From IMG/VR virus record IMGVR_UViG_3300042197_003121: 64,000 bases of DNA; one strand, 5' to 3'. The position numbers and the translations under genes were made by a program. Positions within the stretch are counted from its first letter, which is position 1; each line of letters starts with the position of its first letter. The notes under the pieces are model-generated. The model was not told where the DNA came from. It did not search any database and worked only from the letters and a program-made list of their open reading frames with translations. Source of the DNA: an uncultured virus (IMG/VR IMGVR_UViG_3300042197_003121) (taxonomy: Duplodnaviria; Heunggongvirae; Uroviricota; Caudoviricetes). Positions 1-55,536 of this stretch are shown one piece after another.

Positions 1-407
1 GGGCTGTAGATGCCGGTATTAGCATCCCCGCTGAAAAACAAAGACGGAGTCGACGCCGACCCTGCAGCCAACCCAACATTCAAACTACCTGCTAACTTTG
101 CAGACGTAATAGAACCATCAGCCGGTACACTCGTATTTAATGCATCACCCATTAAAACGGCAAAAAAGCTTAACCCAGATCCTGGTGCCGTTGTAAATGT
201 AATGGTATTGGTATTAACCGTGTAATCAGTCGTCGGTTGCTGAATAACACCACCTAAAGAAACCAATAACTGCTGAGGACTTCCGGCTGTTACGTTGGTG
301 CCACCAACGCTAGTAGTGAAACTAGTAGTCGCGCCGTTAAATCCGCTCGAAATATCATCTAACTTTCGGTATTGACCAGCCAGAGGCTGCGTTCCGATGT
401 ATGCCAC
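1..407 (-). CDS. Tail fibre protein, N-terminal part (runs off the window edge)
   Basis: Read by hand from GTG at 407: MAYIGTQPLAGQYRKLDDISSGFNGATTSF...SLGGVIQQP...GSASTPSLFFSGDANTGIYSP; paralogous to the N-terminus of 37127..39325. Confidence 0.8.
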   Translation of the reverse strand, partial: MAYIGTQPLAGQYRKLDDISSGFNGATTSFTTSVGGTNVTAGSPQQLLVSLGGVIQQPTTDYTVNTNTITFTTAPGSGLSFFAVLMGDALNTSVPADGSITSAKLAGSLNVGLAAGSASTPSLFFSGDANTGIYS

Positions 408-564
408 AGGTTTTCATTCTTGATTCGCTTATTCTAATTCAACTTACTCACACCCCTTAAACCGTTGCTTTTACTATCAACAACTAAAAAAGAATAAAAT
501 TGCAATCGCAGAAACCATGAAGATAATTGCAATAGCGGCGCAGAACAGAGTGACTGCTTCTCTG

Positions 565-846
565 TCAGTCAGTTGGTTTAGATCGAATCTCATGAAGATA
601 CTCCGCCACCTGGAGCCGAAGTTCGGGCGGGATGAGATGACATTGGCTGATTTGAGCGCAGCACCACTCTAGCTCTGATGCAGCGCCCATGGCGTGACCG
701 GTGGTTAATCCTTTGTTGAAACCATAAGATGCACCTTTACGTACGATTGAACGGCAGGCTTCACCCTTACTGGTTTCTTTATTTAGGAGCTCTTTGGTCC
801 ATTCACGCACCCATTCTGGTGGTGGCATGAAGACAGGATCGATCAT
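565..846 (-). CDS. Hypothetical protein (PPPEW family, paralogue of 1897..2268)
   Basis: MIDPVFMPPPEWVREW...GAASELEWCC resembles PPPELVQQW...GADQELEACC; ATG at 846 preferred. Confidence 0.6.
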   Translation of the reverse strand: MIDPVFMPPPEWVREWTKELLNKETSKGEACRSIVRKGASYGFNKGLTTGHAMGAASELEWCCAQISQCHLIPPELRLQVAEYLHEIRSKPTD

Positions 847-1207
847 TTTGAAGTATTGGTTGGGTTTGAGAAAGTGCCAATACTTGACAGGTATTGGCGG
901 AAGTGGCAATACTACGGGCGGGCTAGTACAAACAAACTATTTTGAGTGTATCGAAGCGAACTCCGGTAAATCAAGAAAGAGGGTATTGTATAAATAGATA
1001 CCAAATCAAAGCAATGAATTCTGCATTCATCACCTATATCCAAGCTAATCAAAAGAAGTCCAATCGTGAACTGAATAAATATAATTTTGCGGTTCTGCAA
1101 ACAATGAAAGAAGGAAAGGAGCTCAACCAGTCTGCCCTGGTGAACAGCCGCTGACGTTTGCTATTCGCAAATAGCGAATACCCCTCCCCCTGATCGGCTC
1201 CCGAACG

Positions 1208-1234
1208 AAAAAACCTCCCCTTTGGTTGGGGAGG
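1208..1234 (-). terminator. Intrinsic terminator
   Basis: Minus strand CCTCCCC-AACCAAA-GGGGAGG-TTTTTT downstream of 1269..1469. Confidence 0.75.
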
Positions 1235-1268
1235 CCTGAGTTCAGCGAAAGTAAAGAAAGTAAAATCT

Positions 1269-1469
1269 TCAGTCGCCTGACTCGTGCTCGGTAGCACTGC
1301 GAACTTTGCTTGGGAGGGGCAAATTTAATGCTATCCTCAGGGTGTCATTTTCGTAAACAAGCATCCGAACCATGTCCGCTGTGCAAATCTCACAGGGATA
1401 AGGAAACCTTGGAGCGACGATGGAAGCAATTTCGTTGTAATACTTCCTGTAATCAAATTCTTCAATCAT
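1269..1469 (-). CDS. Hypothetical protein
   Basis: ORF in leftward series with ACCATG start. Confidence 0.6.
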   Translation of the reverse strand: MIEEFDYRKYYNEIASIVAPRFPYPCEICTADMVRMLVYENDTLRIALNLPLPSKVRSATEHESGD

Positions 1470-1471
1470 GG

Positions 1472-1486
1472 TAGTTGATCGGACTA
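1472..1486. repeat. TAGTN-N5-NACTA site
   Basis: TAGTT-GATCG-GACTA; contains the stop of 1484..1879. Confidence 0.65.
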
Positions 1487-1879
1487 CTGGGCTTGAAACA
1501 AGTCGATGTCATCCTCGGCAACATCCAGTTGAGTTGCTATACGTAAAAGCTCAGGCGCAAAGATCATGCCATGCCCGTTTTGGCACTGGTTAATCACCTC
1601 GCGCAATGCTGCGGCCAACATTTCACCGTCACTGACTGAACGGTCGCGCTGGTCAGCAAGAGTGCAATAGGCGTCAAAGATTGCTTGAACTTTTGCTTCA
1701 AGCTTTGCCTGCCCGGCACGTTGTACCCAATTTGTTTGGGTCGGTTCCTCCGGCTCTGGCTCAGCCAATGCAGTCCTTGCTCGTTCAACAAGAGCGTAAA
1801 ACCTTTTAGCGTCTGGCCAGTTGCATTGATATAAGTAGCTCAGAAGCTCATTACACAATCGCTTGTAGTCGTAAGTCAT
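1484..1879 (-). CDS. Hypothetical phage protein
   Basis: 131-aa ORF, ACCACCATG start. Confidence 0.7.
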   Translation of the reverse strand: MTYDYKRLCNELLSYLYQCNWPDAKRFYALVERARTALAEPEPEEPTQTNWVQRAGQAKLEAKVQAIFDAYCTLADQRDRSVSDGEMLAAALREVINQCQNGHGMIFAPELLRIATQLDVAEDDIDLFQAQ

Positions 1880-1884
1880 GGTGG

Positions 1885-1899
1885 TAGTGATGTTGACTA
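1885..1899. repeat. TAGTN-N5-NACTA site
   Basis: TAGTG-ATGTT-GACTA; contains the stop of 1897..2268. Confidence 0.7.
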
Positions 1900-2268
1900 C
1901 GAGGGCAGGGATTCAAGAGCAGTTCGAATGATGGCTAAATCAGATTCCATCTTTTCGCACCACATCTCACTGTCACATCTACTCATAGCCTCAAGCGCTA
2001 ACTCCTTCAAGCTCGGTGGCTTGGGGCGGCGGGCGGCGCGGAGTTCCTTGGCAAAACCATGGAAGTCTTCATGCTGCATGTATTCACAGCACGCCTCCAG
2101 CTCCTGGTCTGCTCCCCAGCGTGCGGCTTGAGTGGCGATGTGTTGTAGCTTTTCAGTCGTGATTGTCACTGTGGACATAATTCGCAACTGGCTGACATAT
2201 TCAGGCAAGTTGCGCCACTGCTGCACCAGTTCAGGCGGTGGGGTGATCGGGTGATTGTTTTCAGTCAT
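1897..2268 (-). CDS. Hypothetical phage protein (HPITPPPELVQQW family)
   Basis: 123-aa ORF in series. Confidence 0.7.
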   Translation of the reverse strand: MTENNHPITPPPELVQQWRNLPEYVSQLRIMSTVTITTEKLQHIATQAARWGADQELEACCEYMQHEDFHGFAKELRAARRPKPPSLKELALEAMSRCDSEMWCEKMESDLAIIRTALESLPS

Positions 2269-2274
2269 GATAAT

Positions 2275-2289
2275 TAGTCCTTTCCACTA
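2275..2289. repeat. TAGTN-N5-NACTA site
   Basis: TAGTC-CTTTC-CACTA; contains the stop of 2287..2457. Confidence 0.7.
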
Positions 2290-2457
2290 AGTAGGTCGGC
2301 AAAAGATTTGACGGATCACGGGCAGTTCGCCCCACCAACACTTGCCCAGCCAAGTTACTTCACCCCACTTCTGTTGTGGAACAAAGTCCTTGTTAGTCCA
2401 AGCGATGCGACCAATAAAGCCGCCCGTGTCGTCAATTCGGATAAAGAGGTCACGCAT
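2287..2457 (-). CDS. Small Trp-rich hypothetical protein (56 aa)
   Basis: Read by hand: MRDLFIRIDDTGGFIGRIAWTNKDFVPQQKWGEVTWLGKCWWGELPVIRQIFCRPT; fills the gap exactly between two sites. Confidence 0.65.
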   Translation of the reverse strand: MRDLFIRIDDTGGFIGRIAWTNKDFVPQQKWGEVTWLGKCWWGELPVIRQIFCRPT

Positions 2458-2472
2458 TAGTCGCTTTCACTA
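2458..2472. repeat. TAGTN-N5-NACTA site
   Basis: TAGTC-GCTTT-CACTA; abuts the ATG of 2287..2457. Confidence 0.7.
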
Positions 2473-2483
2473 ATAGGTGTAAA

Positions 2484-2936
2484 TTAGAACGGAATTTCGT
2501 TCGTCGGTTGATTAAGATCAATCTTCTCCCGAGGGATCGAACCTTTACCATTGTCCAGGTGTGGTGCCACGGCTGCCATGAACGCATTTTCAAAATCCCG
2601 CATCGGATCGATTTTAGGCAACTGATTCAACATCTGAACCATTGCTTTGCTGGCGCTGACAGCAGCAGTTCTGTTGCCATCCTTCCTGGCTTCCATACGA
2701 TCAACCTGAAGACCAGTGAAGACCTGGGCGAAGAGGGCGGCGCGGTTCTCAACACCGATGGATTCGATCAAGAGTTGGCGTCCTGCGCGAACGTAGCTGC
2801 GGGCTTGTTGTGGTGTCACGTCAAAGCGTTTGGAAAGTTGATCGACGACAGCATGACCAGGCCATCCTTCTGCCAGGAGGTTAGCAGCCTGTTCATTCCT
2901 GTCTAGGAGTTCTTCTTTGGTGGAGCGGTGAGTCAT
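2484..2936 (-). CDS. Hypothetical protein, possible N-terminal HTH
   Basis: ATG at 2936 after CA-rich leader; LLAEGWPGHAVVDQLSKRFDVTPQQARSY looks HTH-like. Confidence 0.6.
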   Translation of the reverse strand: MTHRSTKEELLDRNEQAANLLAEGWPGHAVVDQLSKRFDVTPQQARSYVRAGRQLLIESIGVENRAALFAQVFTGLQVDRMEARKDGNRTAAVSASKAMVQMLNQLPKIDPMRDFENAFMAAVAPHLDNGKGSIPREKIDLNQPTNEIPF

Positions 2937-3271
2937 GGTGGTGGTGTGTGCGTTTGATAATGTTGTGCTTTGGAGCACAGCGTGGTCATTGTAGCTCAAT
3001 CAAAATGTGGGTGAGCATAAATGCTTACTATGTTTTACCCACAATTTGATCTTGGTTCGTGGCTATTCTTTTGCTTCTGCGCTGGGATGATTTATCAGTT
3101 CTACCGGAATGAAGTGAACTCCTAATTAGGAGGAAATTAGGAGTTCGTTAGGAGTTACTCGTTGCTGGCGTAAATCAAGAGAGCAATGATGATGTACGTA
3201 ACAGCCGCTAAGCAGAAACCGAGCAACCCAATCACATCCCAGGGGATTGTATCCATTGTTACATTTTCAGA

Positions 3272-3610
3272 TCAGAAGTAGATCCTACTGCCTCCAGGGC
3301 AATAGTCATCATCATCGTAATCAGAACAATCGTTTATTATCGGTTTCCATTCTGCATTAACCAATAATTGGTACCGGTTCACATATTCTTCCAACTCTGA
3401 AGTAGTCTTACCTTTAAATTCTAAGTGATCGGGTAAAGCTTCCGGATAGATTACAGTCTCACATCTCGCTGGTGCAAACTCTGGTGCATCATAAAAAGAC
3501 AGGGGGACGGTGCATTTGCCCATGTTTTCGATGATGGCCGTGACGACCAGATTGCCGTCTCTATCAACATCAAAATCTTCAATGAGAGCGATGTCGTAGT
3601 GGTAGCTCAT
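3272..3610 (-). CDS. Hypothetical acidic protein
   Basis: ATG overlaps the stop of the upstream gene (ATGA). Confidence 0.65.
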   Translation of the reverse strand: MSYHYDIALIEDFDVDRDGNLVVTAIIENMGKCTVPLSFYDAPEFAPARCETVIYPEALPDHLEFKGKTTSELEEYVNRYQLLVNAEWKPIINDCSDYDDDDYCPGGSRIYF

Positions 3611-3804
3611 GATGGTTTGGTTGGTGTGAAGGTCCAGTGTGTGCAACGAAAATCAAAATGCATTTCGCTGGCGGAGAGGTAACTCTCTGTCATCCAGCCA
3701 TGGAGCGGAGAGAAATACAGAACTGTTCCGTATTCATCTGCTTGTTCTTCAGTTGGATAGTCTGCAGGTTCGTCGAGGAAGAATACGTTTTCAGGTAGAA
3801 GCAT
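3607..3804 (-). CDS. Hypothetical protein
   Basis: MLLPENVF...PTEEQADEYG...THW. Confidence 0.6.
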   Translation of the reverse strand: MLLPENVFFLDEPADYPTEEQADEYGTVLYFSPLHGWMTESYLSASEMHFDFRCTHWTFTPTKPS

Positions 3805-3814
3805 GCGTTGAAAT

Positions 3815-4066
3815 CTAAAGAAATAGTGAAGGGATGTCGTACTGCTTAGGAGATGATTCATCCCCTTCAGCTTTACCACCGATGCTGTCGATGTATTCAG
3901 TTTCTTCTTGCAATCGTTCTAACACCGTTTCAATCATTGCTGAAATTGTACCGGCGACACTGTCACCAGAATCCTCAGCAATCTCATGGAGTGTGTTCCA
4001 ATCTTCAGTTGTTAATGTGATACAGACGAGAGACTTGACGTAGGTTGAAGACATCATCAGAGGCAC
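3815..4066 (-). CDS. Possible ribbon-helix-helix DNA-binding protein
   Basis: VCITLTTEDWNTLHEIAEDSGDSVAGTISAMIE pattern. Confidence 0.45.
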   Translation of the reverse strand: MPLMMSSTYVKSLVCITLTTEDWNTLHEIAEDSGDSVAGTISAMIETVLERLQEETEYIDSIGGKAEGDESSPKQYDIPSLFL

Positions 4067-4112
4067 AGAAGTAGCATCAAGGCAACAGCGATGATCGTGT
4101 TGCGGGTGGTTT

Positions 4113-4421
4113 TCATGGCTTGAGAGCTGGCGCAGGACCCTTCAACTGTGCGCGGGATACGCATTGGAGAGAGGGCCCAACAGCCGTCGGGTGTTCAACA
4201 ATGACAGAGACAGATTTAGGGCAATCAATCTCTACCTTCTTGTTGATTTCTTTCTGGATGAACATAGCGACCAGAGCAACAACACCAAGAGAAAGAATCG
4301 CTGGTGTGAGCTTCGCTAAATTCTCAGCCGCATCAATCGCTGCGAGGGCAAGATGTTGAGCAGCTGTTAGTTTCCGTCGTTTGGAGATCATGATGTCACC
4401 GATGTTCAGTAATGTGTGCAA
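4113..4421 (-). CDS. Hypothetical membrane protein
   Basis: One hydrophobic segment AILSLGVVALVAMFI; start uncertain. Confidence 0.55.
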   Translation of the reverse strand: MHTLLNIGDIMISKRRKLTAAQHLALAAIDAAENLAKLTPAILSLGVVALVAMFIQKEINKKVEIDCPKSVSVIVEHPTAVGPSLQCVSRAQLKGPAPALKP

Positions 4422-4653
4422 CCCAGTGTTCGATGTAGTCGATCACATCGTCCAGCTTTGCAATAGCTTCGCTTCTTTCAAAGCGAGCATCTTGATAAGC
4501 ATGATCACCCTGGGGATAGAAATCGCGGGCGTTGCAAGTGGAGGAAAGCAATGCTTCCCTTGCACTCTTGAGTGAGTGCCAGGCGTCGGTGTATTCCCTG
4601 GAGAGGGTATCAGCACCGGTGCCGTTGAGATGGATGGTTGGCAGCGTGTACAT
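4396..4653 (-). CDS. Hypothetical phage protein
   Basis: MYTLPTIHLNGTG...NARDFYPQG; ACCATG start. Confidence 0.7.
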   Translation of the reverse strand: MYTLPTIHLNGTGADTLSREYTDAWHSLKSAREALLSSTCNARDFYPQGDHAYQDARFERSEAIAKLDDVIDYIEHWVAHITEHR

Positions 4654-4657
4654 GGTG

Positions 4658-4933
4658 TCAGCTGTGAAGGAGTTGGGTTTCATAATGAGCCTGCTTCCAG
4701 ATCTCAGCCATGGTGACAGGAGGCTCACCGCCGCTGTTGTCGTACAGATGCTGAGGGGTTGGATCGTAGTTGAGCTCTTCTTCGAGGGCAGGAATAATTT
4801 CGTATTCAATTAGATCGCGAAGGGTAAAAGAAAGATCTTCATATCCTTCGGGCTTCTTCGATTCACGCAAGAGAACCTCTTTGAGCTCGTTAACGATTCT
4901 CTGGACGTGATCAGATTCGTGAATGCGGTTCAT
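4658..4933 (-). CDS. Hypothetical protein
   Basis: ORF in series, CACACCATG start. Confidence 0.7.
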   Translation of the reverse strand: MNRIHESDHVQRIVNELKEVLLRESKKPEGYEDLSFTLRDLIEYEIIPALEEELNYDPTPQHLYDNSGGEPPVTMAEIWKQAHYETQLLHS

Positions 4934-4966
4934 GGTGTGGTGTGTGGGTGGATTGGATAACTGTGA

Positions 4967-5224
4967 TCACTGTTGCAGTGGGATCTTTGCAAACTCCTCG
5001 ATGAGCTGTTGCTCTGTGTAATTTTCGTATTCAGGATTTGCAGTATCACAATGCTCCGGCTTCTTCTTGATGTAGACAGTTTCGTTATCAACGAAGTAAT
5101 AACGCAAGCCTTCTGCTGCAAGCATGGTGAAACAGTTACCGAGAGTTCGATACTGTTGGTGAGCCATTTCTTTGAGCAGATAATACTGATGCTCTGAGAG
5201 TTTGATGCTGATGGCGTAATCCAT
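4967..5224 (-). CDS. Possible ribbon-helix-helix protein
   Basis: ISIKLSEHQYYLLKEMAHQQYRTLGN pattern. Confidence 0.5.
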   Translation of the reverse strand: MDYAISIKLSEHQYYLLKEMAHQQYRTLGNCFTMLAAEGLRYYFVDNETVYIKKKPEHCDTANPEYENYTEQQLIEEFAKIPLQQ

Positions 5225-5259
5225 GGTGTTTGTGGTGTGTGTGGGCTATGTGTTTATGC

Positions 5260-5457
5260 TCAGTGAGGAATAACCTCTCTGGGCCTCTGGAACGCGCTGT
5301 TGGGGCCGTACTTCTCGGCCAACTCAGGGAACGCATCCCAGATACGTTGACGGTTGCTGGGATCCGCATAACGCAGAGCAGTAGCTAAGCTGGAGACAAA
5401 GGTCCCACCAAAGCGCTCCATGCAGAGCAGTGTGACGTGAAATTCGTTGGGAGTCAT
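5260..5457 (-). CDS. Hypothetical phage protein
   Basis: MERFGGTFVSSLATALRYADPSNRQRIWDAFPEL, a motif typical of small phage proteins. Confidence 0.7.
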   Translation of the reverse strand: MTPNEFHVTLLCMERFGGTFVSSLATALRYADPSNRQRIWDAFPELAEKYGPNSAFQRPREVIPH

Positions 5458-5509
5458 GGTGATGATGCAGTGGTGTGTGCAGTGGAAGTCTACAGGGTTT
5501 TTGTCAGGC

Positions 5510-5785
5510 TCAATCGTTTGTTGCGCCTTCTAACATTGCGAGAGAAGATGAAACCTCGGCGTGCATGTCCTTGAGCCATGCAATGCGCTGGTCTTTCCCA
5601 TCTGTTCTAAGTGCCATGTTGTGGACATAACACAGGATTGCACCTCGAAGTACATTTGGTGGAACACCTTCAATGCTGAGGATTTCGTTTGCACTGTGAT
5701 CATTGAACATGATTTCTTCATCAGCGTTGCAGATGTGCATGCTGCAAGAAACGATGCTGTACGTAGTGATTGTTGATTTGTCCAT
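5510..5785 (-). CDS. Hypothetical protein
   Basis: ORF in series, ACCATG start. Confidence 0.6.
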   Translation of the reverse strand: MDKSTITTYSIVSCSMHICNADEEIMFNDHSANEILSIEGVPPNVLRGAILCYVHNMALRTDGKDQRIAWLKDMHAEVSSSLAMLEGATND

Positions 5786-5793
5786 GGTGATGA

Positions 5794-5997
5794 TCAGATA
5801 GATTCAATGAAACCGAGTTGGAGATCATGGAGGGGACCGAAGTCCCCCCGTGGCTTGAGCTGATACCAGTTGAGATCCCAGCCATTGGCCAGGCGATCTT
5901 CTTTGATCAGCGTTTCGATGTCGCGAACATCATCAATCCCGCCAGAGACAGAGATCCTGATCTTGTTGGGGTTGCGGTCGCGGCGTGCGTCAGACAT
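5794..5997 (-). CDS. Hypothetical protein
   Basis: ORF in series, ACCATG start. Confidence 0.6.
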   Translation of the reverse strand: MSDARRDRNPNKIRISVSGGIDDVRDIETLIKEDRLANGWDLNWYQLKPRGDFGPLHDLQLGFIESI

Positions 5998-6023
5998 GGT
6001 CGGAGGTTAAGGTTTGATTAAGG

Positions 6024-7433: not shown

Positions 7434-7553
7434 AGTACATGTATTACGTACTTAATTAGGGTGATTTTGGGCGGTTCCGAGCTTAGCATAGGTGATTTTA
7501 CGTCAAAATTGTGTGACGATTTGTAAATTGGCACATTGTTACAGGTTGTTGCG

Positions 7554-7612
7554 CACTATCAACATGTAAATCACTATCAACTATCAACAAAAATGCCCCT
7601 TGCGGGGCAAAA
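7554..7612 (-). repeat. Terminator plus TGTTGATAGTG repeats (module 1)
   Basis: GCCCC-TTGC-GGGGC hairpin with minus-strand T-tract, then three CTATCAAC copies. Confidence 0.8.
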
Positions 7613-8483: not shown

Positions 8484-8609
8484 CGCTCTCTATGTGCGAG
8501 TGAACAAGCCAGGCTGATTGCCTGACCCCCTAATCATAGGCCATCGGCCGACCCTGCCAGCCCACTGGCGCCAAACTTAACAATCGTTGACATTGTTACC
8601 CTCTGTTGC

Positions 8610-8677
8610 TCACTATCAACACAAAACTTCATTAATCACTATCAACTATCAACAAAAAAATAGGGGCCGGAGCCCCC
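8610..8677 (-). repeat. Terminator plus TGTTGATAGTGA repeats (module 2)
   Basis: GGGGC-CGGA-GCCCC hairpin, A-tract, three CTATCAAC copies. Confidence 0.8.
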
Positions 8678-8681
8678 AAAA

Positions 8682-8990
8682 TCAACAGCCTAGGTATGGC
8701 AGATAATCTGGATCGTCGTTCTCCCTGCAGTCGCAGGCCCAGATCCAGAGCAGACGCCCTAAATTGGCCTGATGATCGCAGAGTTCACGCCGATCCCACG
8801 CGCCGTAGTCTCGCAGGTGTTCCCGCAACAACCACGCTGGGGCTTCGATCTGCAAACGGTCGACCCAGTAAGCCACTGCCTCATCGACAGAACCCTGAGC
8901 CGAGCAGTCTGCAATGCAGTCCTCAGGAAGCCTGCTAATGGCAGAGCGCCCCTGAAACCACTTGCCCCAATAGGTCTTGAGACCATTCAT
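8682..8990 (-). CDS. Hypothetical phage protein
   Basis: CSAQGSVDEAV...LRDYGAWD..EL.D...N..RLLWI motif; ATG at 8990. Confidence 0.7.
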   Translation of the reverse strand: MNGLKTYWGKWFQGRSAISRLPEDCIADCSAQGSVDEAVAYWVDRLQIEAPAWLLREHLRDYGAWDRRELCDHQANLGRLLWIWACDCRENDDPDYLPYLGC

Positions 8991-9011
8991 CGCTTCTATG
9001 GCGAACGACCT

Positions 9012-9114
9012 CCTCACTGTAGCGCATCGGCAACCGCCGCCACTACCATGAAATATTTCTTCATCACGTTAATCACTATCAACACAAAAGTTAAAAAAAG
9101 GGGCCGAAGCCCCC
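9012..9114 (-). promoter_or_regulatory. Terminator + TGTTGATAGTGA + promoter (module 3)
   Basis: Hairpin GGGGC-CGAA-GCCCC, AATCACTATCAACACAAAA, -10 context TGCGCTACAGTGAGG. Confidence 0.75.
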
Positions 9115-9121
9115 GGTTTCA

Positions 9122-9391
9122 TTATTCTGGCTCAGCGTAAGCTGACTTGATCCGGTCGCCGCAATGGTCACAGTACAGGTCTGGGTCCTCCCAATTTGCG
9201 TCGATCGCCACCAGCCGCCAGCCATCAGTTCCCGTAGTGGTCCCAATATTGGAGCGTTCAGACTTTGCGCAACGATGGCAGCAGGCGCCGCCGTCATGGA
9301 ACACGCCGAACAGAGGGTAACCACCAGGCCAAGCGTATGGGCTGGCGCTGAGCTGATCAGCCAACCGGAGGCTGGCGCTTTGAGTTGTCAT
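9122..9391 (-). CDS. Hypothetical Zn-binding phage protein
   Basis: YAWPGGYP, CCHRC, NWED.DLYCDHC motifs. Confidence 0.75.
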   Translation of the reverse strand: MTTQSASLRLADQLSASPYAWPGGYPLFGVFHDGGACCHRCAKSERSNIGTTTGTDGWRLVAIDANWEDPDLYCDHCGDRIKSAYAEPE

Positions 9392-9412
9392 CGCATCTAG
9401 GGCGAACTACCC

Positions 9413-9514
9413 CCTCACTGTAGCGCACCGGCCAGCCCCACCACGGCCACTTCACACTTATTCATACTGTTAATCACTATCAACACAAAACTTAAAAAGG
9501 GGCCCGGAGGCCCC
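9413..9514 (-). promoter_or_regulatory. Terminator + TGTTGATAGTGA + promoter (module 4)
   Basis: Hairpin GGGGCC-CGGA-GGCCCC, AATCACTATCAACACAAAA, identical TGCGCTACAGTGAGG. Confidence 0.75.
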
Positions 9515-15314: not shown

Positions 15315-17147
15315 ATGGGATCACCACCACCACCTACTATTGTTTATTCGCCGCCGCCGCCGCCTCCAGCGCCGCCAACCCCTGTACCGACTCAGTCGTT
15401 GCAATCGCAAGCTGCGTTAAACGAGACTAGTTCTGCTCAACAAAGGCTCAACATGGAGCTTGGGGCACAGCTTGATCGTACTAACGCTGAGTTTTTTGCG
15501 GGTCAAGATGTACGAAGATATCAAGCGCAGGGTGCTGAACAGAGATTAACTGCAGCTGCAGTTGGTACGCAAGAGCGTGCAGTTGCAGCAGCTAAAGGAG
15601 ATCAAGAACGGAAAACTGCAGAAGTAACTGGATATCAACAGCGCTTAGGTATTGCTACAACTGGTACACAAGAACGACTTACTGCAGCAGCTAGAGGGGA
15701 GCAAGAGCGCCTAGGAATTGCGGCAACTGGAGCACAAGCTCGGGCGACTCAAGCTCAGTTACTTTCTGGGCAAGAACGACAGATTGGATTAACTGGTGAA
15801 CAAGCCAGAGCAACGCAGGCTCAGTTACTTTCTGGCCAAGAACGTCAAATTGGCCTGACTGGTACACAAGAACGGCTCACGGCAGCAACTAGAGGGGAGC
15901 AAGAGCGCCTAGGGATTGCCGCCACTGGAACACAAGCCAGAGCAACACAGGCTCAGTTGCTTTCTGGGCAAGAACGACAGATTGGATTAACTGGTGAACA
16001 AGCCAGAGCAACGCAAGCTCAGTTACTTTCCGGACAAGAACGCCAAATCGGATTAACCGGTGAACAAGAGCGGCTCACGCAAACACAACGATTCGCGGGT
16101 GAAACAGGGTTAATCCAAACTCGAGGGGCTGAAGAGCGTTTAGGAATCGCAACTACTGGTGAACAAGCCAGAGCAACACAGGCTCAGTTACTTTCCGGAC
16201 AGGAACGACAGATTGGATTAACTGGTGAGCAAGCCAGAGCAACGCAGGCTCAGTTACTTGCTGGCCAAGAGCGTCAAATTGGATTAACCGGTGAACAACA
16301 ACGTTTAGGAATCGTAACTACTGGTGAGCAAGCCAGAGCAACGCAAGCTCAGCTCCTTGCTGGTCAAGAGCGTCAAATTGGATTAACTGGGGAACAAGAG
16401 CGGCTCACGCAAGCACAGAGATTCGCGGGTGAAACAGGGTTAATCCAAACTCGAGGGGCTGAAGAGCGTTTAACAACTGAGACAGCAGGTTATCAACAGA
16501 GGTTAGGAATTGCTGCAACTGGTGAACAAGAGAGGCTCACACAAGCACAGCGGTTTGCGGGTGAAACAGGGTTAATCCAAACTCGAGGGTCTGAAGAGCG
16601 TTTAGGAATTTTGGCAACCGGCGAACAAGCCAGAGCAACGCAAGCTCAGCTTCTTGCTGGACAAGAACGCCAAATCGGGTTAACAGGTGAACAACAACGT
16701 TTAGGAATTGCAACTACTGGTGAACAAGAGAGGCTTACACAAGCACAACGGTTCGCGGGTGAAACAGGGTTAATCCAAACTCGAGGGTCTGAAGAGCGTT
16801 TAGGAATCGCAACTACTGGTGAGCAAGCCAGGGCAACGCAGGCTCAGTTACTTGCTGGACAAGAACGCCAAATCGGGTTAACAGGTGAACAACAACGTTT
16901 AGGAATTGCAACTACTGGTGAACAAGAACGACTAGGCATTGCAGCTACTGGTGAGCAAACCAGAGCAACACAGGCTCAGCTTCTTGCTGGTCAAGAACGC
17001 CAAATTGGGCTGACTGGTCAAGAGCAGAGAGCGACTCTTGCTAAATCCGGTGAAGAGACTCGTCTTACGGACTTGCAACAAGAGATGTTTAGGCGCTATA
17101 AAGAGAATCGAGATTTCGAACAAGCTCAACGGCAGTATCGAGTATGA
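15315..17147 (+). CDS. Hendecad-repeat coiled-coil protein
   Basis: 11-aa units TGEQARATQAQ, LLAGQERQIGL, TGEQQRLGIAT, RFAGETGLIQT; poly-Pro N-terminus. Confidence 0.85.
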   Translation: MGSPPPPTIVYSPPPPPPAPPTPVPTQSLQSQAALNETSSAQQRLNMELGAQLDRTNAEFFAGQDVRRYQAQGAEQRLTAAAVGTQERAVAAAKGDQERKTAEVTGYQQRLGIATTGTQERLTAAARGEQERLGIAATGAQARATQAQLLSGQERQIGLTGEQARATQAQLLSGQERQIGLTGTQERLTAATRGEQERLGIAATGTQARATQAQLLSGQERQIGLTGEQARATQAQLLSGQERQIGLTGEQERLTQTQRFAGETGLIQTRGAEERLGIATTGEQARATQAQLLSGQERQIGLTGEQARATQAQLLAGQERQIGLTGEQQRLGIVTTGEQARATQAQLLAGQERQIGLTGEQERLTQAQRFAGETGLIQTRGAEERLTTETAGYQQRLGIAATGEQERLTQAQRFAGETGLIQTRGSEERLGILATGEQARATQAQLLAGQERQIGLTGEQQRLGIATTGEQERLTQAQRFAGETGLIQTRGSEERLGIATTGEQARATQAQLLAGQERQIGLTGEQQRLGIATTGEQERLGIAATGEQTRATQAQLLAGQERQIGLTGQEQRATLAKSGEETRLTDLQQEMFRRYKENRDFEQAQRQYRV

Positions 17148-23153: not shown

Positions 23154-25106
23154 ATGTTTATCGATAGCTAACTCAGATCCTGATAGGTTTTTCCTTTTAA
23201 GATTTGATAAACGGCTAAGTGATTACAATTGAAGTGATCCGCAATTTTTCGATAAGAAAAACCTTCGGCCCTCATCTGCTTCATTTGATTCACATCACTT
23301 TCTGAAAATTTTCTTAAAGTTTTTTTAGCCTTCCCTTTACTGGCATAACCATTTTTAGAGTAACATCCAGCTTTTAACGCCCTGTTGTAGTTTTCTCTTT
23401 TTGTAACGACCTCAAGATTTTCAAGAAAATTGTTTCTTTTGTTGCCATCTTTGTGATCAACCTGAAGAGAATTGCTTCGAACTCCGTGACGAGTTAGATC
23501 TAAATTTAAAAAAGTTATTGCCATAAGAACATGTATGTGATAGCGTTTCCTTTCCCCCTCTTGGGAAATAGAAATTCTGTTGTACGTGCTCGTAGAACTA
23601 ATGCTCAATTCAACAAAACCATTATCGGTTTTTTGATACGGCGTTCCGGTTTCATCTAAGTAAAGGTTTTCGAATCCAGGGACTAGTCTTGGTTCCATGT
23701 TGTATAAAAACAACTTGATTCCAAATTAGCATGCCTTAGCTGAGTAGTCAATGTTGTCGCCTAATCAGGTAACTGATTAGTGAACACCGGGTGAATTCAG
23801 GGAAGCCCTAACGTAAAGACGAGGGTAATCCTGAGCCAAGCCAACTAAGTCCGTAGTTGGAAGGTGCAGAGACTAGGCGGTGGATGACGCTTCATCCGTA
23901 ATACGTCGTTAGCGCCCGGCACCCTACCAAGGGTGAAGAGATAGTCCACCCCTTCAAGAAATTGAAGATCAGGAGAACGACTTTCCCAAGCTGTTGGGTG
24001 CGGAGCTGTACCGCCCCCATCCGGCTTACATTGTGGAAATGGCAGCTGAGCCTGTTGTTGTCCACGATTTCACTAAACAGCCTGGTCAAACTGTTCAGTT
24101 AGACCGGTATCGTTTCTGGGGCAACCCTGGGACCAAGACTCAGCGTGAGCGCACCCAAGACCAAACGATCGGTACGGCCAACAGCCGCTCCATCGTTAAG
24201 GACAAGGTGCTTGTGTCTCTGCGTGAGTACACCGGCCCTGCTGACCCGAATAACTCCAACCTCCCGAGCACCTTCAAGATCGCTCGTGAGACTCTGATGA
24301 CCGCACAGCGCCTGCTGCTGGACACCGGGAACCTTAACATGTTCCACCAGTCCATCGGTTCGCTGACCCTGCTCGATGACTATCGTCGTTGGCGCGATCG
24401 CGTCTTCCTTGACGAGTTCTCGAAATCTGAAGCTCGTGGCGCTGCATCTGATACCCAAGGTGGTTATTACTACCCCAACGGTAAAGTCAAGACTGGCGCG
24501 ACTACTCTGACTGCCTATAGTGCAACTGAGTACGCTTCGGAGCGTTACAAGTTCAACGTTAAGACCGACCTGCTGGAAGTTGTCAAGCAACTTCGTAAGC
24601 GGAACACCCCTGTGTTTGCTGACGGTTACTACCGTTGTATCGCTGATCCCTCCTTCATGAAGGATCTGCGTGCTGACCAAGGCTTCCGTGAAGTGGCTCG
24701 TTACCCTGGCATGGGTCAGCCTAACCCCCTGATGGGTGCTATGGCGCCTAACTCCGCCATCTATGGCGGTGGCCAGTTCGGTCAAGCTCAGTTCGTTGCT
24801 GGCGAACCCGTCATGCCTTCCGGCTTTGTGTTTGAAGGTGTCCGGTTCTTCGAATCGACCAACTTTGCTGACAAGTCAATCACTGTTGACATTGGCGACG
24901 GTAGTGGTGCTATTTCTCACACCACTCCTCCCGCTCTGTTCTTTGGCCCTCAAGCCGTCGGCGTGGGTATCGGTGGTCCGAACGCTCAGGTTCTGATCAA
25001 CAATAACGACGACTTCAGCCGCTTCATCATCCTGATTTGGCAGCTGTACGCCGGTTTCGCGAACCTGAACAAGGACTTCGTGACTGCCGCCTTCACCATC
25101 GTTTGA
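23154..25106 (+). CDS. Major capsid protein, spliced: exon 1 23154-23165, exon 2 23976-25106 (380 aa)
   Basis: Joined exons read MFID-NDFPKLLGAELYRPHP; strongly biased codons; QPGQTVQLDRY and G.FEGVRFFES capsid-like motifs. Confidence 0.85.
23166..23975 (+). mobile_element. Group I intron (810 nt)
   Basis: P GAATTCAGGGAA, Q AATCCTGAGC, R GTGCAGAGACTA, S AAGAGATAGTCC; P3 CCGGGTG/CGCCCGG, P8 and P9 hairpins; 5' exon ends in U, intron ends in G; frame restored. Confidence 0.92.
23168..23713 (-). CDS. Intron-encoded HNH homing endonuclease (antisense to host gene)
   Basis: YHIHVLMA..F, VDHKDGNKRNN...NLEVVT..EN, C-terminal HTH. Confidence 0.9.
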   Translation of the reverse strand: MFLYNMEPRLVPGFENLYLDETGTPYQKTDNGFVELSISSTSTYNRISISQEGERKRYHIHVLMAITFLNLDLTRHGVRSNSLQVDHKDGNKRNNFLENLEVVTKRENYNRALKAGCYSKNGYASKGKAKKTLRKFSESDVNQMKQMRAEGFSYRKIADHFNCNHLAVYQILKGKTYQDLS

Positions 25107-37126: not shown

Positions 37127-39325
37127 GTGCCGTATTTAGGAAACGATCTACAGGTTGCGCAGCCTTCGTATCGCAACATTGATGATATCAGCGGTTCTTT
37201 TAATAGTTCAACGACATCTTTTCCTTTATTGGTAAGTGGTAGCGCTCCAGTTCCATTTCCAATCAATTCTAACCAATGTTTAATTTCTGTTGCTGGTGTC
37301 GTTCAACGGCCCGATGACAGCGGTACCGAAGGATTTCGGATCAGTGGGGGAAATATTATCTTCAGCTCAGCTCCGAATACAGGGGCGGACTTTTTCGGTG
37401 TCATTCTAGCTGGCGCTGATTACGTTAATGTCGGCGCTAATTTTCCAAGTGGTTCAGCTGCAGTTCCAAGTATTACGTTTGATTCGGATTTAGATACTGG
37501 CATTTACAATTCAGCTGCTAATCAGGTTTCTATTACAACGGCTGGAACTGAAAGGTTACGTATTGATTCTGCTGGTCAAATTGAAGCTGTTTCTCTTGGT
37601 ACGGCTGGAGCTCCTAGCTTTAGTTTTGCGACTGATCCGAACACCGGAATTTATTCCCCCGGCGCTGACCAAGTAGCGGTAGCAACTAATGGGACTGGGA
37701 GGTTGTTTATCAGCGCTGATGGCGTAGCTACTGGCGGCGCAGCTCAATCTGGCTACGGAGGATTGCAAGTAAGGAATGGCTTTATCTATGTCAATGAAGA
37801 CGGAGCCAATACTGTACAGATGTATTTGCGCACTGTTTCAAATGAGGCTGCGATTCAGGTTGCAACTAATCATCCATTCAAGATTCAGACAAACAATCAA
37901 GAACACCTGCGCATCACCTCCGCTGGCCTCGTAGGCATAGGGACTAGTTCGCCTGTCGGAAATTTAGACGTCACCTTTAGCAACTCAACTGCTTACTCCA
38001 GCAGCAATATGTTTGCTGGAGGAATTAGTCAGTATATTTACAACTCTTCGACAACTGATGGCGTAGCTTCAACTTTAGGTCTTGCTGCCAAAGGTTCAGG
38101 TACAACTGCTCAGGCAGCTATTTCCGCAATTTATTCTTCAACTGGTGTTGGGCACCTGGCATTTGGCACACGCGCTGGCGGAAATGTTATTGAGCGGATG
38201 AGGCTTACCTCAACTGGACTAGGGGTCGGCACTACGAGCCCTGGCTCGCCGCTAACGATTGAAAGTAGTGCTGGCAATCAAGTCAAAATTACTTACCCGT
38301 CGATTGCTTCTTACTTTCTGAACGCAACGTCTGGTGGTGATTTTGCTATTAACAAGGACGGCACCGAACGCGCCCGCATCGACTCCAGCGGACGCCTCTT
38401 AGTTGGTACGTCTTCTGCTCGTGCAAATTATTTCAATTCAACTGCAACAACACAACTCCAAATTGAGAAGGCCGGTGGTGATGGTGGTGTTTCGGTTATC
38501 AGTGATTCTGTTGGCGACGACCCGGCAATTCTGATTCTTGGAAAATCAAACAACGCCTCATTGGGAGGCAATACCGCTGTTGCCGTAGATAACTTTCTTG
38601 GCACTGTTTCTTTTCAAGGAAACGATGGGACAGAGTTTGTTGATGCTGCTCGCATCAGTTGTTATGTAGACGGTACCCCTGGCGCTAATGACATGCCAGG
38701 CCGCCTAGTGTTCTCCACTACTGCGGATGGGGCGAGTTCTCCGACGGAGCGGATGAGGATTGGGCAAAACGGGCAAGTATTGGTTGCTCACGGAACAAGT
38801 AGTTCTGTAATTCAAGGAGAATCAAGTATTGCAAGCGCTTATGCCAACTCAATTTTTGTAGCTCGGTTTACTGGTTATTCACCGAATACCACGAGCAATT
38901 ATTTTTTCTACTGTGAAGACACAATTTCAGCCCGTGCTTACATTTATAGTAATGGCGGCTTAGCCAACTACCAAGCAAATGATGTCAATCTTTCAGACCG
39001 TAACGTCAAGAAAGACATCAGTCCTGCTGCTGACACTTGGAACTGCCTTAAAGAATGGGAGATCGTCAACTACCGCTACAAAGATCAGCCGGATGATGCT
39101 GACCTGAACTTTGGCGTTATCGCTCAGCAGGTAGCGGAAAGCTGTCCTGAAGTCGTCACCATCTTCCAAGAGGCAAAGGAGGCGACCGAAGACCAACCCG
39201 CCCAGGAAGAACGCTTGGGTGTCAGGGAACAGCAGATGTACTGGATGGCGATCAAAGCTCTTCAGGAAGCTCAGGTTCGCATCGAGCAACTGGAAGCCAA
39301 AGTTGCAGCCCTTGAAAGCGCGTAG
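37127..39325 (+). CDS. Modular tail fibre with C-terminal intramolecular chaperone (peptidase S74)
   Basis: ERMRI.S.G.VGIGT repeats; SDRNVKKDI, GVIAQQV, C-terminal coiled coil. Confidence 0.9.
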   Translation: MPYLGNDLQVAQPSYRNIDDISGSFNSSTTSFPLLVSGSAPVPFPINSNQCLISVAGVVQRPDDSGTEGFRISGGNIIFSSAPNTGADFFGVILAGADYVNVGANFPSGSAAVPSITFDSDLDTGIYNSAANQVSITTAGTERLRIDSAGQIEAVSLGTAGAPSFSFATDPNTGIYSPGADQVAVATNGTGRLFISADGVATGGAAQSGYGGLQVRNGFIYVNEDGANTVQMYLRTVSNEAAIQVATNHPFKIQTNNQEHLRITSAGLVGIGTSSPVGNLDVTFSNSTAYSSSNMFAGGISQYIYNSSTTDGVASTLGLAAKGSGTTAQAAISAIYSSTGVGHLAFGTRAGGNVIERMRLTSTGLGVGTTSPGSPLTIESSAGNQVKITYPSIASYFLNATSGGDFAINKDGTERARIDSSGRLLVGTSSARANYFNSTATTQLQIEKAGGDGGVSVISDSVGDDPAILILGKSNNASLGGNTAVAVDNFLGTVSFQGNDGTEFVDAARISCYVDGTPGANDMPGRLVFSTTADGASSPTERMRIGQNGQVLVAHGTSSSVIQGESSIASAYANSIFVARFTGYSPNTTSNYFFYCEDTISARAYIYSNGGLANYQANDVNLSDRNVKKDISPAADTWNCLKEWEIVNYRYKDQPDDADLNFGVIAQQVAESCPEVVTIFQEAKEATEDQPAQEERLGVREQQMYWMAIKALQEAQVRIEQLEAKVAALESA

Positions 39326-39337
39326 TCCCCTTCACTT
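39323..39337. repeat. TAGTN-N5-NACT site on the fibre stop codon
   Basis: TAGTC-CCCTT-CACTT; 14/15 identical to 55522-55536. Confidence 0.75.
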
Positions 39338-39339
39338 CT

Positions 39340-39489
39340 ATGTCTGACACCACCGCTTGGGAGGAATACTGCGAAGCCAGCCCTGACCTGAGCAATCAGG
39401 ATGATGTTGGCGAGGCAGGAGCTATTGCAGCTCTGGACGATCTTTACGCCAACAACGACGAAGGCATGAAGCGTCTTGCTGACAGCTAG
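39340..39489 (+). CDS. Small acidic protein (49 aa)
   Basis: Read by hand: MSDTTAWEEYCEASPDLSNQDDVGEAGAIAALDDLYANNDEGMKRLADS; bounded by two sites. Confidence 0.6.
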   Translation: MSDTTAWEEYCEASPDLSNQDDVGEAGAIAALDDLYANNDEGMKRLADS

Positions 39490-39504
39490 TAGTCTTTGAC
39501 ACTT
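39490..39504. repeat. TAGTN-N5-NACT site
   Basis: TAGTC-TTTGA-CACTT directly after the stop of 39340..39489. Confidence 0.6.
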
Positions 39505-41818: not shown

Positions 41819-41891
41819 TACCCGAGGTGAGATTCGAACTCACGCTGGAGGACTTTTAAGGTCCCTGTCTCTTCCGCTGGACTACTCGGGC
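41819..41891 (-). tRNA. tRNA-Leu(UAA), no encoded CCA
   Basis: GCCCGAG/CTCGGGT acceptor, GGGAC-CTTAAAA-GTCCT anticodon arm, GTGAG-TTCGAAT-CTCAC T arm, discriminator A. Confidence 0.9.
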
Positions 41892-50012: not shown

Positions 50013-50249
50013 CTAAATCTTTTCGGGTTCTGCGTCCGCCACGTATTCGACCGGCAACGGAAATGGGTCAATTTTAGGCTCTTTCACCCAGTCTTGGTAG
50101 GTGTCTTTTAAGACTTCGTACTCATCATACGGGATCAGCATCACGTCGTCACCATCTCTTTGAATACGATAATATTCTTTGTTATTAACGACATCATCGA
50201 GGATGGCGTCAAAATCAGCCTCTAACTGCTGAAGAGTGACGACTTTCAT
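50013..50249 (-). CDS. Phd/YefM-family antitoxin-like protein
   Basis: VTLQQLEADFDAILDDV......I.R.G.DVMLIPYDEYE. Confidence 0.8.
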   Translation of the reverse strand: MKVVTLQQLEADFDAILDDVVNNKEYYRIQRDGDDVMLIPYDEYEVLKDTYQDWVKEPKIDPFPLPVEYVADAEPEKI

Positions 50250-50290
50250 GATTTTGCCTAACAACTGTTAGTAGCTTAACAGATTTTTTA

Positions 50291-55521: not shown

Positions 55522-55536
55522 TAGTCCCCTTCACTA
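55522..55536. repeat. TAGTN-N5-NACTA site
   Basis: TAGTC-CCCTT-CACTA between the fibre stop and the next ATG. Confidence 0.75.

Follow-up and report, generated by a model that had tools for sequence, protein, structure and literature searches.

We describe a directional 15-nt sequence box that separates small, promoterless genes near the start of the 64-kb stretch of viral DNA analysed here (the window), and at which whole genes differ between related viral contigs and within lake populations. The reading that we favour, with a probability of approximately 0.5, is that the box is a conserved linker at module boundaries which serves as a crossover point, in a manner resembling the promoter-early stem-loop (PeSL) cassettes of T4-type phages. 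How whole genes are exchanged cleanly at their borders in mosaic phage genomes is an old question. The box marks those borders in abundant lake cyanophages, whose natural populations differ by single genes there; it offers a concrete, mutable target for asking whether linkers drive modular exchange, and a handle for accessory genes (possibly of host-takeover or anti-defence type) in viral metagenomes.

The box and its neighbouring genes in the window

A first-pass annotation had reported a quasi-palindrome at four consecutive gene boundaries (1472, 1885, 2275 and 2458), and both the letters and the coordinates of these sites were verified. The enrichment which it had proposed to check was also found: TAGT-N7-ACTA occurs six times in 64 kb, as compared with a mean of 0.41 in dinucleotide shuffles (none of 100 reached six) and 0.80 ± 0.86 in codon-preserving shuffles (maximum of four in 300). 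Arm spacings of 3–6 and 8–11 gave 0–2 matches each, the enrichment being seen at a spacing of 7 only. The junction sites are thereby confirmed as genuine and far beyond chance.

The genes of the array are all encoded on the minus strand (1269–1469, 1484–1879, 1897–2268, 2287–2457 and 2484–2936). Read in that direction, TAG is the stop codon of the upstream gene at three of the four sites, as had been noted, while at 2458 the upstream gene stops with TAA, 11 nt earlier than the box; the next ATG lies 2, 5, 6 and 0 nt away at the four sites, within the range of 0–6 nt given before. The features are as follows:

2484..2936, minus strand: 150-aa gene, backbone, upstream of the array; relatives at 98% and 87% amino-acid identity
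2458..2472, minus strand: box M1, sense TAGTGAAAGCGACTA; 11 nt past the TAA of the 150-aa gene, with the ATG of the 56-aa gene immediately after
2287..2457, minus strand: cassette gene, 56 aa, without family match
2275..2289, minus strand: box M2, sense TAGTGGAAAGGACTA; its TAG stops the 56-aa gene, 6 nt to the ATG of the 123-aa gene
1897..2268, minus strand: cassette gene, 123 aa, PHROG 32006 (function unknown, E 2e-25), a virus-only family
1885..1899, minus strand: box M3, sense TAGTCAACATCACTA; its TAG stops the 123-aa gene, then CCACC and the ATG of the 131-aa gene
1484..1879, minus strand: cassette gene, 131 aa (MTYDYKRLC... family), without family match
1472..1486, minus strand: box M4, sense TAGTCCGATCAACTA; its TAG stops the 131-aa gene, then CC and the ATG of the 66-aa gene
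1269..1469, minus strand: 66-aa gene, conserved backbone, downstream of the array; abuts the 150-aa gene in relative L210
1211..1237, minus strand: intrinsic-terminator-like hairpin with T-run, 3' of the 66-aa gene (10-pair stem, 6 G-C pairs)
39323..39337, plus strand: box variant TAGTCCCCTTCACTT; its TAG stops a 732-aa tail-fibre gene, then CT and the ATG of the 49-aa gene
39340..39489, plus strand: 49-aa cassette gene, flanked by two boxes
39490..39504, plus strand: box variant TAGTCTTTGACACTT, after the double TAG stop of the 49-aa gene
55522..55536, plus strand: box TAGTCCCCTTCACTA, 7 nt past the TGA of a 342-aa tail-fibre-like gene, the TAG being no stop here; followed by CC and the ATG of a DUF218 gene (55539–56057)

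The 56-, 66-, 123-, 131- and 150-aa proteins gave no match in Pfam or NCBIfam, and PHROGs matched the 123-aa protein alone. All four boxes of the array lie within one transcription unit, closed by the hairpin at 1211..1237, and no promoter-like or terminator-like site was found at the junctions 1472, 1885, 2275 and 2458; a promoter at each joint was accordingly dropped as a candidate. A known RNA family was likewise rejected, as the Rfam matches at gathering score comprised a group I intron and a tRNA, neither of them at the sites.

Among the three distant sites listed in the annotation, the one at 55522 is exact, whereas those at 39323 and 39490 carry ACTT instead of ACTA; the window holds seven sites when the ACTT forms are counted. 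A sixth exact match, absent from the earlier list, lies at 38706 inside the tail-fibre gene, and identical single copies of its 15-mer occur outside small-gene clusters in two related contigs. It is probably conserved coding sequence and not a junction.

The box is directional

The palindrome is merely the commonest form of a directional, G-poor 15-nt box. In the sense orientation its consensus is TAG followed by TC, five variable (class-specific) bases and C-x-CT-x, and a short G-poor spacer of 0–13 nt leads to the next ATG. The description of constant arms around a variable core is correct for the core, but the right arm reads ACTA in just 34 of 84 unbiased instances, in which positions 12 and 15 are the freest. 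Strand asymmetry is strong: of 46 instances, 41 carry C at position 5 and 2 carry G, and C stands at both position 5 and position 11, where dyad symmetry would need C and G. The symmetric operator that had been offered as an alternative does not fit this asymmetry.

Nor was it established that both orientations occur. In the coding sense, one pair of sites has the form TAGTC...[C/A]ACTA and the other pair has TAGTG, a purine-rich core and GACTA. In relatives, the purine-rich type appears in the sense orientation only (22 exact hits, 3 junction contexts, one of which is the window's own record), and inverted use of the box was not seen.

Of 96 contexts, 86 retain the TAG; nine of the other ten are unrelated sequences and one has TAT. 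Among these contexts it is never swapped for TAA or TGA in related sequences, nor for a sense codon. The possibility that TAG acts as a sense codon or is read through was rejected, given that the sole tRNA is Leu(UAA), that the triplet is so widely kept, and that open frames past TAG are no commoner in frame 0 than in frame 2.

The fixed length recurs outside the window. In 446 kb made up of 80 loci that surround homologues of the 123-aa gene, a spacing of N7 gave 68 sites, while seven other spacings gave 0–4 each and N10 gave 12; of the 7 distinct contexts for N10, 5 are N7 sites that adjoin TAGTAG or ACTACTA. Both arms together, counted on both strands of these loci, were observed 136 times versus 3.8 expected. 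Five related contigs hold 3–4 exact sites each, most of them in a cluster of about 2 kb; the tail-fibre 15-mer accounts for two or more of the outlying ones. One genomic record (G001) proved to be the same as window positions 1–37954 and was hence left out as an independent relative.

Within box classes, substitutions concentrate at positions 12 (13 of 39) and 15 (12 of 39). Codon changes in the frame of the TAG comprise 27 synonymous versus 11 non-synonymous ones (29% expected), a bias which we do not read as coding because positions 6 and 9 are almost invariant (2 and 0 substitutions).

Whole genes are gained, lost and exchanged at the boxes

The annotation had suggested that breakpoints of gene gain and loss in relatives be compared with the site, and such breakpoints were found at all four sites, in metagenome contigs and in relatives L209 and L210. 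In lake metagenomes of four studies, compared as the assembled contigs of the runs, homology with the window stops within 2 nt of all four boxes: contigs from four runs and four studies end or diverge at 1472, 1486 and 1488 (box M4), 1884 and 1886 (box M3, the latter twice), 2273, 2290 and 2456 (three times). The last position is where contigs of three runs from three studies begin to match the window at the M1 locus. At M2, a contig of run X3 matches the window over 2273–2485 with 0 differences, beyond which it carries another allele of the 123-aa family; the M2 15-mer is also found at junctions of two other contigs.

Whole cassettes differ in the same way. In X3, the 56-aa cassette together with both its boxes is identical to that of the window (213 of 213 positions), with flanks that differ at 72 of 2198 (3.3%) and 98 of 1473 (6.7%) positions. 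The 56-aa gene is missing from L209 and L210, and the 131-aa gene from L210 and from the dominant X3 phage, in which a contig jumps from 1488 to 2084. L209 has one box, the M1 variant TAGTGAAAACAACTA, followed directly by a gene of the 123-aa family. In L210, the 150-aa gene adjoins the 66-aa gene directly (TGATG), with zero cassettes and zero boxes. The proposal that the small genes are promoterless, exchangeable cassettes bounded by the site is thus supported, with whole cassettes differing at the boxes.

The same boxes, often as identical 15-mers, recur between many gene pairs of related viral contigs. TAGTCCGATCAACTA was found in 10 junction types, which combine 8 peptide clusters upstream with 6 downstream; TAGTCAACATCACTA, which comes after genes of the 123-aa family, in 15 junction types with 12 downstream clusters, and TAGTCATTACCACTA in 5 junction types with 5 upstream clusters. 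The end of homology is sharp: at the M3 edge, conservation among 26 non-redundant sequences, chosen by letters 1–14 of the box, is 65–100% from −30 to −1 and 27–54% from the first base past the box. At the tail-fibre sites of relatives, TAGTCCCCTTCACTA comes after tail-fibre-type ends (...ALEAQ, then stop); starts homologous to that of the 49-aa gene (MPDT...EEYCEAS) stand directly after the box in three contexts, and elsewhere a terminator-like hairpin takes that place. The core itself drifts by point mutation inside one orthologous junction, with four cores before the MTILCD gene.

Exchange extends beyond the boxes. Whole-gene indels and swaps were also found at box-less joints and within the 123-aa gene, which shows a depth spike and many internal breakpoints in lake-metagenome contigs; more than 606 stretches related to it occur in viral contigs, and its nearest atlas clusters are all viral. 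A one-gene indel at 4654–4939 is flanked by two copies of ACACCATG and is box-less, and 36 of 63 junction types after genes of the 123-aa family end in TGA, many of them with an overlapping ATGACTGA joint and box-less.

What the box may do

Under the linker reading, the box would be the outer limit of exchangeable modules drawn from a gene pool common to freshwater picocyanophages of several lineages. During co-infection, recombination would cross over in the boxes, adding, removing or replacing whole genes while preserving the reading frames and the polycistronic layout. Crossover in the boxes is suggested because identical boxes, some with 30-nt constant flanks, sit between unrelated genes in co-occurring phages. 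The recombination may be of the general homologous or short-homology type, acting without a dedicated enzyme; breakpoints inside the 123-aa gene, and the box-less indel and joints, argue for general over dedicated recombination. The box is probably retained because it would also act as a strong stop with an unstructured restart region.

Several observations weigh against the linker reading. An identity of 15 nt is short for homologous recombination, the crossovers are deduced from contigs, and a breakpoint in the box is inseparable from a selected breakpoint at a gene boundary because the box occupies nearly all the intergenic space. The invariant TAG and TC point to a sequence-specific function beyond that of a linker, and a function as RNA or as a single strand would likewise be consistent with the strand asymmetry. 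Furthermore, since the box precedes terminator-like hairpins after tail-fibre genes, a restart role cannot be general.

The most serious competitor, although we regard it as unlikely, is that the box is punctuation at the RNA level only (a signal for termination, re-initiation or processing), the swaps mapping there since only recombinants between genes survive. This would agree with a TAG that mostly serves as the in-frame stop and that related sequences never exchange for TAA or TGA, with the sense orientation and G-poor composition of the box, with an ATG within 0–13 nt and with the single transcription unit that holds all four sites. Against this, identical 15-mers whose neighbouring sequence is unrelated on either side would be difficult to account for unless the box moved or exchange took place at it; the distance from box to ATG is variable; the TAG is no stop at 2458 and 55522; and the box stands before terminator-like hairpins that have no nearby ATG. 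Of 7 sites, 3 form a hairpin of the arms in their minimum-energy fold, the folds being weak and inconsistent (z-scores between +0.48 and −3.1), and the TAGA, ACTT and ACTC variants lack compensatory changes; the RNA hairpin was therefore rejected, and the translational-coupling hairpin suggested in the annotation does not fit these results. Two common box strings (25 and 21 nt) have no exact match in 185,579 cellular genomes, which speaks against a general host signal and gives no sign of copies in hosts or prophages, although diverged copies would escape such a search.

It is considerably less probable that the box is a true site-specific recombination site of the integron, dif or pdif kind, at which a host enzyme or an unrecognised phage recombinase moves single cassettes, possibly as circles. 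The array does have n + 1 boxes for n cassettes, single-cassette differences fall exactly at boxes, with one cassette 100% identical amid diverged flanks, and discrete box classes are shared among many partners, which a requirement for matching central bases would predict; the strand asymmetry would be consistent with an enzyme that recognises a single DNA strand. A host-encoded enzyme would also account for the recombinase-free window: as the annotation had stated, the window shows no recombinase, PHROGs (E ≤ 1e-5) having matched none of its 113 scanned ORFs to an integrase, resolvase or transposase, and Pfam none of the 60 that were scanned with it as well. Against the reading, of the tyrosine and serine recombinases named in the annotation, the former (PF00589) is found in 2 of 5 related contigs, where it lies some 0.9 kb from the closest box in the first and some 34 kb from the box cluster in the second, and the latter (PF00239) in 0 of 5. 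The half-sites of known recombinases far exceed the arms of 4–5 nt in length, and the right arm is loose (ACTA in 34 of 84). The empty junction of L210 carries no site, box-less joints and gene interiors also exchange, and the core point-mutates within an orthologous junction.

Comparison with integrons leads to the same view. The array shares with them promoterless, co-directional single-gene units (three cassettes between four boxes), with one site per joint, mostly at the 3' end of the gene. It differs in having neither IntI next to it, no integrase match being present in the window, nor an attI/Pc platform, and in its unconserved inverted arms and site-less empty locus. The attC site of integrons is a structured repeat of 57–141 bp, and the 15-nt box lacks this long imperfect inverted repeat, which in attC forms a single-strand hairpin and has conserved outer 7-mers. 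The Xer-type pdif site has 28 bp, with two 11-bp arms and a 6-bp spacer; the conserved part of the box is TAGTC plus C-x-CT within 15 nt. The integron-like mechanism put forward in the annotation is therefore unsupported, in view of the recombinase-free window, the 15-nt site, the loose right arm, the site-less empty junction and the box-less swaps. An equally speculative variant would be a minimal 'phage integron' in which the 15-nt box is the site of a dedicated exchange that is specific for one strand. A host enzyme or one of the unannotated small array proteins would serve it, and single genes would pass between unrelated cyanophages as box-bearing circles or by template switching at the box; we hold this to be improbable too.

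Least probable, by a small step, is an operator for a DNA-binding regulator that controls read-through transcription of the array, similar to the stoperators of mycobacteriophages. Stoperators and start-associated sequences are asymmetric sites of 13–14 bp in tiny intergenic gaps, often overlapping stop or start codons; stoperators number tens per genome and are bound by a known repressor, while start-associated sequences include the ribosome-binding site. The box resembles the stoperators of Cluster A in being a short, asymmetric site of fixed length that lies in short intergenic gaps, overlaps stop or start codons and has one orientation relative to transcription; the half-sites of its commonest form have their centres 11 bp apart. 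It differs in occurring a few times per genome, confined to accessory arrays and tail-fibre gene ends, with 3–4 exact sites per related contig (n = 5), mostly in about 2 kb. Dyad symmetry is unconserved (C/C at positions 5 and 11), no HTH or regulator family is found among the array genes, and no gene boundary of the nearest isolate, S-EIV1, carries the site. The box was also rejected as a lineage trait of S-EIV1-like phages, as the sole exact match in S-EIV1 (terminase 66% identical) lies inside the DNA polymerase gene.

Relation to known linkers

The closest counterparts of the favoured linker and crossover point are the PeSL cassettes of T4-type phages (Arbiol et al. 2010, PMC2839356; Comeau et al. 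2014, PMC4122927). In these phages, a short conserved motif recurs between the small non-essential genes of a plastic genome region, related phages differ at it by insertions, deletions and replacements, and it is proposed as the crossover point for modular shuffling, all of which resembles the box. The PeSL consists of a sigma-70-like promoter and a terminator stem-loop, and mini-circles were demonstrated. The box, in contrast, has 15 nt, contains a stop codon, has no promoter-like or terminator-like part, lies inside one transcription unit and is common to several lineages of freshwater-cyanobacterial phages. No description of the box was found in the literature searched, and the two TAGTC-type 15-mers of the window and their reverse complements were absent from its texts.

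In 1978, Susskind and Botstein reportedly set out a modular theory of phage evolution with linkers at module boundaries. Lambdoid phages have conserved boundary sequences between otherwise unrelated modules, and these were proposed to guide recombination. The box is likewise a short conserved sequence between unrelated modules at gene boundaries; it differs in having a fixed length and a consensus, in overlapping the stop codon, and in its presence in over a hundred metagenomic contexts with population variants.

Junction boxes in the window

The window belongs to a tailed phage of freshwater picocyanobacteria. Its ORFs encode a large terminase (66% identical to the counterpart in the nearest isolate, Synechococcus phage S-EIV1 from an arctic lake), a 757-aa virion structural protein (phrog_20475), a major head protein, tail fibres, an endolysin, several HNH endonucleases and a primase, and the metagenome runs containing stretches of it derive mostly from lakes and other freshwater, with some wastewater and sediment. 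Gene calls come from an in-house greedy ORF script and are approximate for small ORFs and start codons. The array around 1472-2472 lies on the minus strand; joints were read on the sense strand:

2484-2936 (-), 150-aa gene, flanking backbone
2458 (-), joint, TAA-(11 nt)-TAGTGAAAGCGACTA-ATG
2287-2457 (-), 56-aa gene, cassette
2275 (-), joint, TAG-TGGAAAGGACTA-ATTATC-ATG
1897-2268 (-), 123-aa gene (PHROG 32006), cassette
1885 (-), joint, TAG-TCAACATCACTA-CCACC-ATG
1484-1879 (-), 131-aa gene, cassette
1472 (-), joint, TAG-TCCGATCAACTA-CC-ATG
1269-1469 (-), 66-aa gene, flanking backbone
1237-1211 (-), terminator-like hairpin

The 15-nt sites, here called junction boxes, do mark four consecutive gene joints, as the first-pass annotation had proposed. 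These share one predicted transcription unit, with the hairpin downstream and no promoter-like site at any of the four joints. TAGT-N7-ACTA occurs six times in the window versus 0.41 expected from dinucleotide shuffles and 0.80 +/- 0.86 (maximum 4 in 300 shuffles) from a codon-preserving shuffle, in which proteins and codon usage were retained and each intergenic stretch permuted; the enrichment thus holds, and other arm spacings gave 0-2 matches each. Sites also recur at 39323, 39490 and 55522, as claimed earlier, but the first two end in ACTT; these flank a 49-aa gene downstream of a tail-fibre gene, and the third precedes a DUF218 gene. A further exact match (38706) lies inside a tail-fibre gene, and its 15-mer is present in two related contigs as single sites outside small-gene clusters; it is probably conserved coding sequence and was set aside. 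Elsewhere in the early-gene block (2937-6000, minus strand), most joints combine a TGA stop with a C/A-rich leader that ends in CACC-ATG (for example CATCATCACC-ATG and CACACCACACC-ATG), a Kozak-like, Shine-Dalgarno-free start context.

A box family tied to gene 3' ends

The surroundings of the best 80 of more than 606 viral-contig relatives of the 123-aa protein contained 68 matches with N7 spacing and 0-4 with each of seven other spacings; N10 gave 12, where five of seven distinct contexts were N7 sites beside TAGTAG or ACTACTA. Whole 15-mers recurred exactly in this set (TAGTCAACATCACTA, TAGTCCGATCAACTA, TAGTCAGACCCACTA, TAGTCATTACCACTA, TAGTCACCTTCACTA, TAGTCCACCTCACTA and TAGTGGAAAGGACTA), and two window boxes are among the commonest. 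The site is therefore a family member and not a local accident. Five related contigs (46-86 kb) carry 3-4 exact sites each, mostly within ~2 kb, plus single outliers. S-EIV1 has no site at any gene boundary, so the box travels with accessory arrays and not with one phage backbone. Exact search of 185,579 cellular genomes with two frequent box strings returned no match.

Junctions were counted when the TAG closed an open frame upstream and an ATG began no more than 16 nt further on; they comprised 48 types, in which individual boxes had multiple partners:

Peptide clusters joined by recurrent boxes
TAGTCCGATCAACTA: 10 junction types; 8 upstream, 6 downstream clusters
TAGTCAACATCACTA: 15 junction types; 2 upstream (mostly behind the 123-aa family), 12 downstream
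TAGTCATTACCACTA + ATCACCC: 5 junction types; 5 upstream, 2 downstream (mostly before the 123-aa family)

A scan anchored on CCCAG + TAGTC-N5-CACTA found at least 122 instances of at least 26 different boxes; among the matches listed, the dominant boxes (39, 19, 10, 8 and 7 instances) each had several upstream and downstream partners. At the TAGTCAACATCACT joint (26 non-redundant sequences, the first 14 box letters being fixed by selection of the set), conservation is 65-100% across the final 30 nt of the gene before the box and drops to 27-54% from the first base past it. Tail-fibre genes ending in ...ALEAQ* also precede the box; what comes next is the 49-aa gene or a terminator-like hairpin, which ties the box to gene 3' ends and not to the next start. 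Past the box behind tail-fibre genes there is often a conserved GGCGGGCAACCGGCC...CAACAGGTTGCA element or classical terminator hairpins, then a DUF7936-type gene (loci L236, L239, L244, L268, L278, L282, L309 and others).

Exchange of cassettes

Contigs of four runs from four studies were aligned to window positions 1-5000, with 32 of 388 pieces and 24 of 127 loose ends listed. Among the listed pieces, alignments end or diverge at 1472, 1486, 1488, 1884, 1886 (two runs), 2273, 2290 and 2456 (three runs), never more than 2 nt from a box edge; the predicted gain and loss breakpoints at the site are thus found in relatives. The loose ends listed show a different gene behind an identical box; after TAGTCCGATCAACTA, one run has a 131-aa-family paralogue in place of the 66-aa gene. 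In one of the runs, X3, the 56-aa gene and its two boxes match the window at 213/213 positions, whereas neighbouring contigs show 72/2198 and 98/1473 differences, consistent with a recent swap of precisely this cassette; the X3 phage is without the 131-aa cassette. In the related locus L209 (93.5% DNA identity), the 150-aa gene is followed by one box and a 123-aa-family gene, with no 56-aa gene between. In L210 (70-76% identity), the 150-aa and 66-aa genes are joined by an overlapping TGATG with neither cassette nor box, so the three cassettes and four boxes are an insert relative to L210. At boxes, natural variation involves whole cassettes.

Exchange also extends beyond boxes. In the four-run alignment, breakpoints are numerous inside the 123-aa gene, and a 91-aa minus-strand gene (4654-4939), skipped in contigs of three runs, is a one-gene indel between two copies of ACACCATG with no TAGT box. 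Of 63 junction types found behind 123-aa-family genes, 36 use a TGA stop, in many cases at an overlapping ATGACTGA joint. Over the 123-aa gene (window 2005-2338), three of the four lake or freshwater runs showed a summed contig depth ~6-40 times the flanking level and dozens of internal joints; in these communities, the family is mosaic and present in very many copies.

Nature of the box

The integron-like mechanism suggested initially is not supported by these data. No recombinase was found among the window ORFs; in the five related contigs searched, a tyrosine integrase occurs in two and a serine recombinase in none. Nor are the inverted arms constant, as had been thought. Anchoring solely on the upstream 15 nt CTTGAAGCCCAGTAG gave an unbiased sample of 108 distinct contexts, 84 of which continue TAGTC; ACTA forms the right end in 34 of these 84 (others ACTT 11, TCTA 9, ACTC 7, GCTA 4), with positions 13-14 (CT) well kept and positions 12 and 15 freest. 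The motif is therefore directional, with the inverted repeat as its most frequent form and no conserved dyad. A hairpin, one of the alternatives offered earlier, is disfavoured by arm variants without compensating changes and by the weak predicted fold. With no window recombinase, a variable right arm, an unconserved dyad and exchange also at box-less places, the box is very probably not integron-type.

Box-less indels and internal breakpoints fit general recombination, which may act wherever a block is conserved within a very abundant gene pool of co-infecting phages; the box is the block marking module ends. TAG is kept in 86 of 96 contexts (the remainder being nine unrelated sequences and one TAT); together with the invariant TC, this suggests a sequence-specific role. 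G is strongly under-represented on the sense strand; at position 5, 41 of 46 instances have C and 2 have G. Within box classes, substitutions in viral contigs (box positions 12, 13 and 15) resemble codon changes read in the TAG frame: they fall mainly on would-be third codon positions, CTA changes to TTA, and synonymous changes number 27 against 11 non-synonymous (29% expected). Coding is countered by the near-invariance of positions 6 and 9 within classes, by TAG never appearing as a sense codon in the contexts and by the absence of a suppressor tRNA. The four 15-mers searched and a description of the box were not found in the literature covered, about 1.7 million PubMed Central articles lying outside it. 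The closest described system is the promoter-early stem-loop (PeSL) of T4-type phages, alike in logic but different in anatomy (PMC2839356).

Other features of the window

23168-23713 (-), HNH endonuclease ORF adjoining the intron
23727-23968 (+), group I intron (Rfam RF00028, 99.4 bits), just upstream of the major-head-protein ORF (23994-25106)
15315-17147, 610-aa ORF
41819-41891 (-), tRNA-Leu(UAA)
50013-50264 (-), Phd/YefM antitoxin-like ORF

A homing intron probably splits a structural gene in the 23727-23968 region. The 610-aa protein is repeat-built, with many internal direct repeats within 15600-17030 (67-90% identity, staggered by ~66-330 nt). Dispersed direct repeats of 59-129 nt (77-88% identity) pair 8987-9113 with 9388-9514, 35285-35343 with 35636-35694, and 7533-7593 with 8590-8658.
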